Virus record (IMG/VR): IMGVR_UViG_2690316267_000015
From: a virus
Taxonomy: Duplodnaviria; Heunggongvirae; Uroviricota; Caudoviricetes
Length of the DNA: 4,860 nt
Direction: 5' to 3' (one strand)
A model generated the notes under the pieces. The model searched no databases, was not told the origin of the DNA, and worked only from the letters and a program-made list of their open reading frames with translations. Shown here piece after piece: positions 1,581-4,794 of this stretch. The position numbers and the translations under genes are program-made. The first letter of the stretch is position 1. Each line of letters opens with the position of its first letter.

Positions 1581-1888
1581 TATGCAAGCCTCACAATATA
1601 GTTAAATGCGATGTTTTTGACGGTGTTTTCCGCGTTACCAGCAGCGTTAACGGTGATGGTATGTCCATGTGAACCAATCGCAACGGAGTGCGTATGAGCA
1701 CCAATACCGACAGTATGTGCGTGTGCACCTGCGCTTGCAGCAGTACCCGATACAGAGTGCGTATGAGCGCCTGCAGAAGAAGTGTTAACACTGTATTTAG
1801 AATAATCAGGTGATCCACTTCCCGGAGCACCACTGGAACCACCTGAAACAAATGTCATCGAATGGGTATGTGCACCGGCTGTCCCCAT
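1580..1888 (-). pseudogene. stfQ: Side tail fibre protein, C-terminal fragment only (102 codons from an internal ATG)
   Basis: The translation contains five GAHTHS-like His-box repeats ([35 protein letters not shown]) and ends ...[26 protein letters not shown], typical of lambdoid Stf and T4 gp37-like fibre tips. Upstream of the ATG at 1888 this frame is out-of-frame J sequence, so the N-terminal about 90 percent of a normal Stf is absent. Confidence 0.8.
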
Positions 1889-3222
1889 GCATTTACCGCC
1901 CGGACTGTCAGCCTGTAATTTCCCAGCGCCAGCTGCGTGAAGCGATATGTGGTTTCCGTCGTCCGGGCCGTGCTGACCAACCGCTCACTGCCGTCGTCCG
2001 CTGCCACGGTCAGGCGAAGCATAAAGCTCACCCCCTTCACCACCTTCGGCGTGTCCCAGCGCGCCAGCACCTGGTATTCCCCGCTGTCTGCGGTGACTTC
2101 TGCGGTCAGGTGCTGAACTGCTGGCGGCGTGACACCATTCACCGTGCCGCTCTGGTCACCGTCAAAGTGCGCCCCGTTATCCACGATGGCTTCTTTCTCC
2201 GGTACATGCTGCACGGCAGTGATGGCATACGTACCGTCATCGTTCTCACGGATACTCACACAGCGGAACAGGCGCTGACGCAGCGTCGGCAGCTTCAGCC
2301 CCCACACGCTGTACTCGGCAACGCCGTCAGGAACCCGGCTCACTTTCACCTTCACGCCGTCGGTGACGGACTGGACCTCCACGCTCACCGGATTACCCTG
2401 CCCGTCAACCAGGCTTATCAGCGTGGTGCCGGAGGATGGCAGCGTGATTTCACGGTCGAGCGTCAGTGTCCGCGTCTGGCTGTTCACCGCCAGCACGCGC
2501 CCGCCGATGCTGATCCCCGCATAGTCATCATCACAGATTTCAATGACATCACCTGGTACATGGCGAAGCCCTTCGGCACCCACGCTGAAGTCCACGGTCT
2601 GCGTTTCCAGCAGTTCCGTTTTAATCAGCCACAGCCCGGCTCGGTGCGCCTGCCCCCGCCTGGTACAGCCAAAGGCATCCATCTTCGTGACGTTACGACC
2701 GTAACGGGCAATGGCCTGCGTGTCCTCCACAAGCTCTGTCGCCGTCTCCCAGCCGTTATCCGGGTCAATCCAGTTCACCTCAACGGCATTATGGCGGTCC
2801 TTCAGGGCGCTGAAGCTGTAGCGGAACGGCGCGCCATCATCCGGCATCACCACATTACTGCGGTTATAGGTCCACACCTTATCTGATGGTCGGTCCTGCA
2901 CGAACGTCAGCGTCTGCCCGTTCCATACCGGCATACAGCGCATCGCCGAGCAGAAATCACTGAGAACATCCCACGCCTTACGCTGTGTGGTCAGCCAGGC
3001 ATTACAGGTGATGCGCGGCTCCGTGCCGCCAAAACCGTCCGGCACCGACTGGTCGCAACACTGGCCGATGACATACAGCGCCCATTTATCCACATCTGCC
3101 GCACCAAGACGTTTACCCATGCCGTAGCGCGGGTGGCTGGAGATCTGTCTCGCTGGCCTGCCGCAGTTCTTCAACTTCCCGGCGCAGCTTTTCGTTCTCA
3201 ATTTCAGCATCCCTTTCGGCAT
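1855..3222 (-). pseudogene. Lambda J-like host specificity (central tail fibre) protein, internal fragment
   Basis: From roughly 3141 down to 1879 the translation (...YGMGKRLGAADVDKWALYVIGQCCDQ...GQTLTFVQDRPSDKVWTYNRSNVVMPDDGAPFRYSFSALKDRHNAVEVNWIDPDNGWETATELVEDTQAIARYGRNVTKMDAFGC...RAVNAWGQ) matches the middle third of lambda gpJ as I recall it. The ATG at 3222 lies inside Nu1-derived DNA and has no convincing Shine-Dalgarno sequence. The J C-terminal receptor-binding region and N-terminal region are missing. Confidence 0.8.
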
Positions 3223-3370
3223 ACCATTTTATGACGGCGGCAGAATCATAAAGCACCTCATTACCCTTGCCACCGCCTCGCAGAACGGGCATTCCCTGTT
3301 CCTGCCAGTTCTGAATGGTACGGATACTCGCACCGAAAATGTCAGCCAGCTGCTTTTTGTTGACTTCCAT
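3113..3370 (-). pseudogene. nohQ: Terminase small subunit Nu1 homolog, N-terminal DNA-binding fragment (Nu1 residues about 1-79, then out-of-frame tail)
   Basis: MEVNKKQLADIFGASIRTIQNWQEQGMPVLRGGGKGNEVLYDSAAVIKWYAERDAEIENEKLRREVEELRQASE is near-identical to the lambda gpNu1 N-terminus as I recall it. Homology stops near 3134; the remaining 6 codons (PALRHG) are not Nu1. The ATG sits about 189 bp from cosN, as in lambda. Confidence 0.85.
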
Positions 3371-3390
3371 TGTTCATTCCACGGACAAAA

Positions 3391-3595
3391 ACAGAGAAAG
3401 GAAACGACAAAGGCCAAAAAGCCCGCTTTCAGCACCTGTCGTTTCCTTTCTTTTCAGGGGGTATTTTAAATAAAAACATTAAGTTACGACGAAGAAGAAC
3501 GGAAACACCTTAAACCGGAAAATTTTCATAAATAGCGAAAACCCGCGAGGTCGCCGCCCCGTAACCTGTCGGATCACCGGAAAGGACCCGTAAAG
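3391..3595 (-). other. cos: Lambda-type cohesive end site (cos): cosB with R1, I1, R2, R3, then cosN, then the cosQ-side flank
   Basis: On the - strand the sequence reads GGGCGGCGACCTCGCGGGTTTTCGCTATTTATGAAAATTTTCCGGTTTAAGG..., which is the lambda left end as I recall it. R-site-like 16-mers lie at 3391-3406 (R1, - orientation), 3440-3455 (CGTTTCCTTTCTTTTC, R2, + orientation) and 3492-3507 (R3, - orientation, one mismatch to lambda). An AT-rich IHF-like stretch lies at 3461-3485. The right-end flank CGTAACCTGTCGGATCACCGGAAAGGACCCG (3560-3590) matches the lambda right end. Confidence 0.85.
3548..3559. other. cosN: cosN 12-nt cohesive-end sequence (AGGTCGCCGCCC on +, GGGCGGCGACCT on -)
   Basis: Exact match to the lambda 12-nt 5' overhang sequence, with lambda-identical flanks on both sides. 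Confidence 0.85.
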
Positions 3596-3758
3596 TGATA
3601 ATGATTATCATCTACATATCACAACGTGCGTGGAGGCCATCAAACCACGTCAAATAATCAATTATGACGCAGGTATCGTATTAATTGATCTGCATCAACT
3701 TAACGTAAAAACAACTTCAGACAATACAAATCAGCGACACTGAATACGGGGCAACCTC

Positions 3759-3992
3759 ATGTCTACGAAGAACAGAACCCGCAGAACAACAACCCGCAAC
3801 ATCCGCTTTCCTAACCAAATGATTGAACAAATTAACATCGCTCTTGAGCAAAAAGGGTCCGGGAATTTCTCAGCCTGGGTCATTGAAGCCTGCCGCCGGA
3901 GACTGTGCTCAGAAAAAAGAGTTTCTTCTGAAGCAAACAAAGAAAAGAGTGACATTACTGAATTGCTCAGAAAACAGGTCAGACCAGATTGA
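3759..3992 (+). CDS. ynfO: Small basic protein with predicted ribbon-helix-helix DNA-binding fold (77 aa), ynfO-like
   Basis: 77-aa ORF with GGGG 8 nt upstream of the ATG. It has a basic N-terminal arm (KNRTRRTTTRN), then RNIRFP (beta strand, compare Arc FNLRWP), NQMIEQINIALEQKG (helix A ending in Gly), SGNFS turn and AWVIEACRRRL (helix B). This is the Arc/Mnt/CopG pattern. A charged C-terminal tail of about 30 aa follows. Confidence 0.85.
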   Translation: MSTKNRTRRTTTRNIRFPNQMIEQINIALEQKGSGNFSAWVIEACRRRLCSEKRVSSEANKEKSDITELLRKQVRPD

Positions 3993-4049: not shown

Positions 4050-4460
4050 ATGGATCAGGTAGTCATTTTTAAACAAATATTTGATAAAGTTCGAAACGAT
4101 TTAAACTATCAATGGTTTTATTCTGAGCTAAAACATCACAATGTCTCACATTACATTTACTATTTAGCCACAGAGAATGTTCATATTGTATTAAAAAATG
4201 ATAATACAGTGTTATTAAAGGGCCTAAAAAACATTGTGTCTGTCAAATTTTCAAAGGATAGGCATCTTATAGAAACGACCTCTAATAAGCTGAAATCCAG
4301 AGAGATCACATTTCAGGAATACAGAAGAAACCTTGCTAAAGCAGGAGTTTTTCGGTGGGTTACAAATATCCACGAACAAAAAAGATATTACTATACCTTT
4401 GATAATTCATTACTATTTACTGAAAGCATCCAGAAAACTACACAGATCTTACCACGCTAA
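4050..4460 (+). CDS. ydfO: ydfO/ybcV-family protein (DUF1398 as I recall), 136 aa; an alternative in-frame start at 4035 would give 141 aa
   Basis: The ORF track gives 4035..4460. The second ATG at 4050 has a better Shine-Dalgarno sequence (GGAAGG at 4037-4042, 7-nt spacer) and yields [14 protein letters not shown]..., matching the ydfO-type start I recall. The gene is very AT-rich, far below the J fragment in GC. Confidence 0.85.
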
Positions 4461-4611: not shown

Positions 4612-4794
4612 TCAGATTAAATTAATCTTGACATCATAGCTTTCAAGACCCGTCATTTTTTCCCGTGCGGTAAACTGAATACTGGTAACTTCTTTCCCGG
4701 TCTTTTTCTTAAGTTCAATAATTTTTTTTGTTATATATTCAGAAATATCTGCTTCTGCTTTTGTTTTTAAGGAAGGTGCGAATAAGCAGGTCAT
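4612..4794 (-). CDS. gnsB: Gns-family protein (GnsA/GnsB-like), 60 aa from the ATG at 4794; the frame stays open upstream to the window edge
   Basis: The C-terminal two thirds (ISEYITKKIIELKKKTGKEVTSIQFTAREKMTGLESYDVKINLI) closely resemble GnsA/GnsB as I recall them (…KNTGKEVSEIRFTAREKMTGLESYDVKIKIM). GGGAAG lies just upstream of the ATG at 4794. The ORF-track version (4612..4860) begins at a GTG at the window edge, so the true start is uncertain. Confidence 0.75.
   Translation of the reverse strand: MTCLFAPSLKTKAEADISEYITKKIIELKKKTGKEVTSIQFTAREKMTGLESYDVKINLI

Follow-up and report, generated by a model that had tools for sequence, protein, structure and literature searches.

The locus raises the question of why a perfect 15-bp palindrome lies next to the packaging-termination signal of a lambda-type cos site, and whether it serves a host regulator, the cos site itself or the accessory genes beyond it. 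An earlier note on this DNA had read the palindrome as a Fur box. That reading was correct but had already been published, since the palindrome is the 'nohA' Fur site of prophage Qin. Taking all of the evidence together, we consider it likely that the palindrome forms the centre of a true Fe-Fur operator of high affinity, the published nohA site, which is inherited within the lambda-type cos module and provides an iron-dependent block in live phages, the copy in Qin being a relic.

The palindrome and its place in the cos region

The window (the whole stretch of 4,860 nucleotides analysed here) is a Qin-type cryptic lambdoid prophage of Escherichia coli. It is 99.9% identical to an annotated chromosomal segment with the gene order pinQ, tfaQ, tail-fibre and J fragments, truncated terminase small subunit, ynfO, ydfO and a gnsB-like gene. 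An intact lambda-type cos lies between the truncated nohA and ynfO, and positions 3560-3758 were 100% identical by BLAST to lambda 48502-48304, the final base of the lambda right arm being window position 3560. The features to which the text refers are as follows.

3113-3370, minus strand: truncated terminase small-subunit gene (N-terminal 85 aa of nohA/Nu1), an open reading frame annotated as a pseudogene
3371-3547, minus strand: cosB-type region, from cosN to the nohA start, with 98.7% identity to the cos of HK630 and DE3
3548-3559, minus strand: cosN cohesive-end sequence, AGGTCGCCGCCC as written in the window and GGGCGGCGACCT on the minus strand, matching both lambda ends
3583-3589, minus strand: cosQ, GGGTCCT, the 7-bp packaging-termination signal; phage 434 has this 7-mer annotated as cosQ
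3591-3618, no strand: extended Fur operator, with a 16/19 consensus match, A-rich and T-rich flanks and, about 6 bp toward ynfO, a weaker site that overlaps
3596-3610, no strand: core 7-1-7 palindrome, TGATAATgATTATCA, the 'nohA' Fur box of prophage Qin, equivalent to lambda bp 48466-48452
3759-3992, plus strand: ynfO (DUF3950, YlcI/YnfO family), reading away from cos
4050-4460, plus strand: ydfO (DUF1398)

The product of the truncated nohA matched Pfam Phage_Nu1 (1.4e-48) over profile positions 1-81 of 164. Within window positions 1855-3370, nohA ends after 85 codons and is fused to a fragment of the gene for host-specificity protein J; the Qin prophage of K-12 differs from the window there, having a 189-aa nohA adjoining stfQ. 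The cosB-type region contained inverted R-type repeats at 3395-3409 and 3437-3451, as well as an I1-type match to the IHF consensus at 3469-3481, the R-site and I1 assignments being based on established lambda cos anatomy (PMC4669245).

What the earlier note had said about the sequence of the palindrome was accurate. Positions 3596-3610 read TGATAATGATTATCA, a perfect inverted repeat in which the arms, TGATAAT and ATTATCA, are 100% complementary around one central base, and the match to the 7-1-7 Fur-box unit TGATAATNATTATCA was 14 out of 14. An exact match to this unit occurred in none of 200 dinucleotide-preserving shuffles of the window (0/200), and when up to three mismatches were allowed the shuffle mean was 0.25. 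The claimed agreement at 15 of 19 positions with the 19-bp consensus GATAATGATAATCATTATC held on the plus strand, at both 3597-3615 and 3591-3609; the best alignment was on the minus strand at 3597-3615, with 16/19, and the rest of the window reached no more than 14/19. One 14/19 match, AATAATCAAAATTATTTTC, was at 252-270, where 8-nt arms (AAAATAAT and ATTATTTT) lie about 50 bp upstream of the pinQ start.

The geometry was also as described. The distance from the right-arm end to the start of the palindrome is 36 bp, where about 40 bp from the cos nick on the right-end side had been given, and the palindrome ends 149 bp before the ATG of the ynfO-like gene at 3759, where the estimate had been about 150 bp. 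The remark that lambda has the same sequence near its right end was correct as well, the palindrome being lambda 48452-48466. In the window, the gap between palindrome and cosQ is 6 bp.

Several other readings of the sequence were rejected. No match to the IHF consensus WATCAANNNNTTR with one mismatch or fewer overlapped 3596-3610, and the palindrome was therefore not taken as an IHF site. When folded as a hairpin it gave an all-A/T stem of 6 pairs (-2.4 kcal/mol, z = -1.4), and a terminator scan did not report it; a hairpin, cruciform or intrinsic terminator was dismissed because the stem is weak and all A/T. Nor did we accept the T run before cosQ as a terminator tail, since it is better explained as a T-rich flank mirroring the A-rich flank on the other side. 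An overlapping sigma-70 promoter was also rejected: no sigma-70-like promoter was found on either strand over 3371-3800, and on manual inspection the -10-like hexamers inside the palindrome were not accompanied by an acceptable -35.

Fur binding and gene expression at the nohA site and in CFT073

The Qin prophage of K-12 MG1655 is identical to the window over 3508-3758, and the centre of the palindrome lies 233 bp upstream of the nohA start in that genome. Chen et al. (2007) reported a 22.3-bit Fur site at K-12 1634624, i.e., at -233 of nohA, together with a second, overlapping site of 12.6 bits that is 6 bp from the first, and found that a nohA oligonucleotide was gel-shifted by 150 nM Fur (PMC2189734). 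According to the account given in that paper, the nohA fragment was first recovered by Vassinova and Kozyrev (2000) in an in vivo selection for Fur sites. In the genome-wide ranking for K-12, nohB (the DLP12 copy) was third with 25.3 bits and nohA about tenth (PMC2189734, Table 4), although the 22.3-bit score of nohA is partly circular, because the site was included in the refined 24-site training set after having been predicted by an 11-site model. Both the Fur matrix and the Fur gel shift that had been suggested as checks were already in print and positive, the former as a published information score among the ten highest K-12 Fur clusters and the latter on a nohA site identical to the window (PMC2189734). 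The earlier note had left the choice between Fur and another regulator, and Fur is borne out by the 14/14 unit match, the published gel shift and the in vivo selection.

The DLP12 twin of the site, 'nohB/nohD', reads TGATAATTATTATCA and lies 6 bp from the DLP12 cosQ. The entry of nohB among Fur-regulated genes reportedly traces to the Fur titration assay of Stojiljkovic et al. in 1994. In a published list, nohB is one of the Fur-regulated genes without relation to iron uptake (PMC9062578).

At the K-12 locus, the FNR ChIP-seq study of Myers et al. has a summit at 1634625, filed among Fur-bound sites (PMC3688515); this coordinate is the centre of the palindrome, at about 3603 in the window. An FNR site was rejected here, as the palindrome reads TGAT-N7-ATCA rather than TTGAT-N4-ATCAA, and we took the peak to represent protein occupancy of uncertain identity. 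Ten 'FNR' peaks coincide with Fur sites in the same study (PMC3688515), a coincidence that suggests either antibody cross-reaction or co-occupancy. The list of Fur ChIP-exo peaks for MG1655 contained none at the cos of Qin or DLP12, and no peak in W3110 was assigned to nohD, ynfO, ydfO or ylcI (PMC10164565). The missing K-12 peak may be due in part to the discarding of multi-mapping reads, the Qin and DLP12 copies being about 95% alike. The text of the Fur ChIP-seq paper of Beauchene et al. (2015) does not mention the genes of this locus.

We also looked at expression in published RNA-seq data for fur mutants (PMC10164565). In iron-replete MG1655, the ratio of the Δfur mutant to wild type was unchanged (log2 values) for nohA (-0.29, p = 0.62), ydfO (-0.05, p = 0.97) and the DLP12 gene nohD (-0.14). 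In the W3110 Δfur mutant nohA did not change significantly, while ynfO fell by 5.1 log2 units (-5.1, p = 0.01) and ydfO by 2.05 (-2.05, p = 2e-5); ybcV and ybcW were also down, not up. The comparison genes fepA and entC rose by 6-10 log2 units in Δfur. The decreases of ynfO and ydfO in W3110 are the opposite of derepression. The comparison of fur mutant and wild type revealed no derepression of ydfO in MG1655 or of ynfO and ydfO in W3110, and the suggestion that a regulator bound to the palindrome affects expression of these moron genes was not supported at this locus, in view of the lack of a promoter-like site within 3371-3800, the flat response of ydfO in MG1655 and the downward response of both genes in W3110. 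Given that nohA is truncated and that there is no promoter, the Qin copy is most likely a functionally silent relic, still able to bind Fur but without measurable output.

A prophage of strain CFT073 carries a copy that Fur occupies in vivo. The Fur ChIP-exo peak P53 (1424699-1424711; PMC10164565), observed in iron-replete conditions only, sits on TGATAATTATTCTCG (1424694-1424708), a variant with two mismatches that ends 5 bp before cosQ at 1424714. The upstream context in this prophage is unrelated to that of the window, and terminase genes follow cosQ. The CFT073 peak shows that it is for Fur that the element has been conserved. In the CFT073 Δfur mutant, C_RS07340 (+2.33 log2), the TerL gene C_RS07355 (+1.34) and C_RS07370 (+2.13) were up-regulated, although more frequent spontaneous induction of the prophage in the fur mutant, and not direct derepression, could account for this. 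The same prophage has a gene for a TonB family protein (L246, CFT073 1423654-1423980), which reads toward cos and lies some 700 bp ahead of the palindrome that Fur occupies.

Conservation beside cosQ and distribution among phages and satellites

We scanned IMG/VR and the GTDB genomes for cosQ-N20-ACG-GGGCGGCG. Once chance hits and contaminating lambda DNA had been removed, the cos sites were grouped by the sequence farther upstream. Most matches in GTDB were due either to chance, in G+C-rich genomes, or to contamination with lambda at contig ends, and as a filter we required TT(T/C)C after cosQ. Exact lambda right-end sequence was seen at or near contig ends in assemblies of Oceanobacillus, a Pseudomonadales MAG, Leeuwenhoekiella, Neobacillus and Shewanella (L143, L154, L187, L191 and L198), with a coverage of about 1x in three of them and non-lambda bases after ...GACCT in three; these are most likely contamination with lambda DNA.

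With up to three mismatches allowed, 20 of 29 unrelated upstream contexts had the palindrome 3-8 bp ahead of cosQ, where the background of the same loci predicted 0.2, and the enrichment beside cosQ across independent contexts was about 100-fold. Conservation across lambdoid cos regions, which had been proposed as a check, was thus strong. Examples of these contexts are ...GTTGCAAC TGATAACCATTATCA TTTTCTC GGGTCCT and ...CTGTAAG TGATAATTATTCTCG TTTTC GGGTCCT. Phage phi80 has a perfect copy 5 bp before cosQ, and N15 has CGATAACTATTATCG, with three mismatches, overlapping the stop codon of gene 59. A second scan, of cos sites with diverged cohesive ends, gave the same pattern. The arms were conserved among contexts and the central base was variable. 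The flanks, conserved across 27 contexts, consisted of TTT toward cosQ and of A-rich sequence (ATGYAAn) away from it, where the ATGYAA forms a third hexamer-like block ahead of the palindrome. Conserved arms, a variable centre and symmetric flanks fit an extended Fur operator.

The hosts of palindrome-bearing cos sites belonged to Escherichia, Shigella, Citrobacter, Kluyvera, Buttiauxella and Trabulsiella, and megablast matched a 161-bp segment comprising cos plus the palindrome in 4449 of the 5426 complete genomes of E. coli (~82%). In a Buttiauxella MAG (L213), two identical copies of GATAATCATTATCAT, 40 bp apart, were noted 60 bp before cosQ.

Retention of the palindrome varied with what follows cos. 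Of the 41 contexts in which a gpA-type TerL lies downstream, 31 had the palindrome, compared with just 1 of the 10 that lack such a gene (Fisher p = 2.4e-4); ten TerL-encoding contexts were also without the box. In the main TerL-less contexts cos is followed only by a Nu1-like small subunit (Pfam Phage_Nu1, 2e-23). Phage-inducible chromosomal islands (PICIs), which are packaged by the lambda-like terminase of a helper (PMC9026076), have this cos-rpp layout, and in these PICI-type elements a G+C-rich terminator hairpin occupies the position of the palindrome. Since the palindrome is missing from PICI-type and from some phage cos sites, we infer that it does not belong to the minimal packaging signal and that the element is accessory, being selected in autonomous phages and dispensable for cutting. 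The earlier idea that the palindrome is part of cos architecture was consequently upheld in one respect, in that it is a conserved neighbour of cosQ, but not in another, because cos sites without it exist in satellites and in some phages. The palindrome is not named in the cos literature that we consulted (PMC4669245, PMC9026076, PMC4856287).

Some other arrangements came to light in the scans. Satellite-like elements (L011, at 4162-4199 on the plus strand and 4720-4757 on the minus strand, and also L041, L043 and L079) have two facing lambda-type cosQ-cosN sites, 560-810 bp apart, one of which comes after a terminator hairpin, with the other abutting a small gene beginning MTEAEILGL. From 8526 onward, contig L062 has a lambda-like cosQ and cosN, then three ORFs that on visual inspection resemble those for an HNH endonuclease, for a small terminase and for a large terminase not of the gpA type, and no gpA-type TerL was found after this cos; if this interpretation holds, terminases of another family use the same cos motif. 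In a Hyphomicrobiales MAG (L159) and in Ruegeria arenilitoris (L224), a motif resembling cosQ-N20-cosN, GGGTCCTTCCC...TATACGGGGCGGCGAGGG, is followed by a homologue of the gpA-type terminase (E = 4e-18 and 1.5e-25, respectively). Neither locus has a Fur-like box. Judged by motif and homology, lambda-type cos may extend to alphaproteobacterial prophages.

Possible functions of the site and comparison with known systems

If the palindrome is the core of a Fe-Fur operator, Fur dimers would recognise the two TGATAAT arms, and the weaker overlapping site 6 bp away would extend the operator. Fur typically covers about 30 bp, and a footprint of that size around position 3603 would extend to cosQ; a packaging motor arriving from the ynfO side would meet the box just before cosQ. 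In live prophages, Fe-Fur probably marks the boundary at which the accessory genes of the right arm meet the cos-terminase operon, and would there block or repress, in an iron-dependent manner, transcription running into cos and the terminase genes. Alternatively, Fe-Fur might modulate access to cosQ, or termination there, which we rank as less likely than a barrier to transcription.

A related but unlikely reading is that Fe-Fur, bound 0-8 bp before cosQ, is a host-factor component of lambda-type cos, either as an obstacle just ahead of cosQ that slows the translocating terminase and so tunes termination, or as a guard of the right end, which is injected first. Were this the case, packaging, or the silencing of the terminase operon in lysogens, would respond to iron, and the retention of the palindrome in 31 of 41 contexts versus 1 of 10 would reflect a need of autonomous phages that is not shared by satellites.

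We doubt that the palindrome is instead the operator of a divergent ynfO-ydfO accessory operon, whether regulated by Fur or autoregulated by YnfO. All 61 sequences with a ynfO homologue (61/61) did carry the palindrome, both ynfO and ydfO responded to loss of Fur in W3110, and DLP12 has the same arrangement of cos, palindrome and then ylcI. However, the direction of the W3110 response is opposite to that expected of Fur repression, ydfO was flat in MG1655, and the palindrome is 149 bp upstream of the ynfO ATG in a region with no promoter-like site. Moreover, 35 palindrome-bearing sequences, representing about 20 distinct contexts, had no ynfO homologue, and N15, phi80 and several prophages have a long gene, directed toward cos, whose end falls at or within the palindrome. 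Contexts of this kind led us to reject dependence on ynfO, and the sole constant neighbour of the palindrome is cosQ. Closer to ynfO, 70-100 bp upstream of it, there is a different inverted repeat (3657-3669 and 3677-3689) with 13-nt arms, ATCAATTATGACG and CGTATTAATTGAT, that are 85% complementary and 7 nt apart; its left arm and upstream flank (CAAATAATCAATTATGACGC) are present in lambda and DLP12. This repeat at 3657-3689 could be the real control element of ynfO, YnfO having, from its sequence, the look of a small DNA-binding protein. In phi80, a 'putative Fur-regulated protein' encoded about 900 bp before cos proved not to be a YbcW homologue and had no NCBIfam match, and this lead was dropped.

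That the palindrome is a working sub-site of cos, used by terminase or together with cosQ and needed for efficient packaging termination, with an incidental likeness to a Fur box, appears improbable. PICI-type cos sites, and at least ten TerL-encoding contexts, keep cosQ and cosN without the palindrome, even though PICIs are packaged by the helper terminase (PMC9026076). Its placement, fixed at 3-8 bp ahead of cosQ in 20 of the 29 unrelated contexts, would fit such a role, as would the fact that the BLAST homology of diverged phages (N15, HK225, mEp237 and Stx1 phages) stops at its outer edge. It is also included in the 238-bp fragment (lambda 48446-182) that the Feiss laboratory used as a complete cos (PMC4856287), and in phi80 it falls inside a span annotated 'cosQ; aka R4 region'. 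Against this, cosQ was described by the same laboratory as an element of 7 bp (PMC4669245), and the spacing of palindrome and cosQ differs among contexts by 5 bp, about half a helical turn, which is ill-suited to a stereospecific contact. In addition, the palindrome is an exact match to the Fur consensus, and Fur binds the sequence in vitro and a variant of it in vivo.

Lambda replicates to about 100 or more copies per cell, and the sites on replicating phage genomes might act as decoys that titrate Fur and derepress host iron uptake, to the benefit of the phage. Such a role is highly improbable. Fur is present at thousands of molecules per cell, of which some 100 single sites should titrate little, and we know of no data linking lambda infection to derepression of the Fur regulon. 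A decoy would also leave the fixed position beside cosQ unexplained, although the site or its DLP12 twin was indeed found by in vivo selection or titration on cloned fragments (PMC2189734, PMC9062578). Finally, a functionless AT-rich palindrome arising by chance, to which the 59% A+T over 3561-3758 and the weakness of the single-stranded hairpin might point, is in practice refuted by the shuffles, the enrichment beside cosQ and the experimental evidence for Fur binding.

As an entry in the Fur regulon the site is already known at textbook level, and its rediscovery adds nothing; its conserved, phage-specific pairing with cosQ seems undiscussed in the available literature. The 'nohA/nohB' Fur sites are the DNA adjoining lambda cosQ, which links two literatures, on Fur and on cos, between which we found no mutual citation. 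If Fur acts there, the best-studied DNA packaging site gains an iron-sensing input; if it has no role, the sites represent widespread 'orphan' Fur binding, which maps of the regulon should leave out of account.

The 'nohA' site of K-12 is the same DNA as the palindrome in the window, but the Qin of the window strain carries a different deletion (nohA of 85 aa, fused to a J fragment). Chen et al. (2007) treated the site as an element of the nohA promoter, and phage, prophage, lambda, cos and packaging all go unmentioned in their paper (PMC2189734). Classical Fur operators (fhuA, fepA-fes, entC, ryhB) share with the palindrome the 7-1-7 unit and the 19-bp consensus, as well as a second site that overlaps the first at an offset of 6 bp, and their information scores are similar. 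They differ from it in that they overlap -35/-10 elements and are derepressed by 5-10 log2 units in Δfur, whereas the palindrome has no overlapping promoter, no derepression in K-12 and no ChIP-exo peak in MG1655. Like the known sub-sites of lambda cos (cosQ, cosN, I2, and cosB with R3, I1, R2 and R1), the palindrome is locked to its position relative to cosQ, and it is kept in lambda, 434, phi80, N15, DLP12 and Qin. Unlike them, it fits the consensus of a host regulator, and neither a terminase R sequence nor an IHF site.

A further comparison is provided by a Zur-type 7-1-7 box, TGTTATATTGTAACA, which lies about 24-38 bp before cosQ in L281 and in some 20 IMG/VR contigs with the same context, a variant, TGTTATATTATAACA, being a perfect match. 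This box fronts a divergent gene, whose product may resemble the lysozyme inhibitor PliG (YcgK). In E. coli, pliG (ycgK) is regulated by Zur. Both the Zur-like box, a 'moron' operator, and the palindrome are boxes for metalloregulators of the Fur family within about 40 bp of a prophage cosQ. The Zur-like box, however, belongs to the promoter region of one specific divergent gene and is confined to that context, whereas the Fur box is found in the same place whatever the upstream gene.
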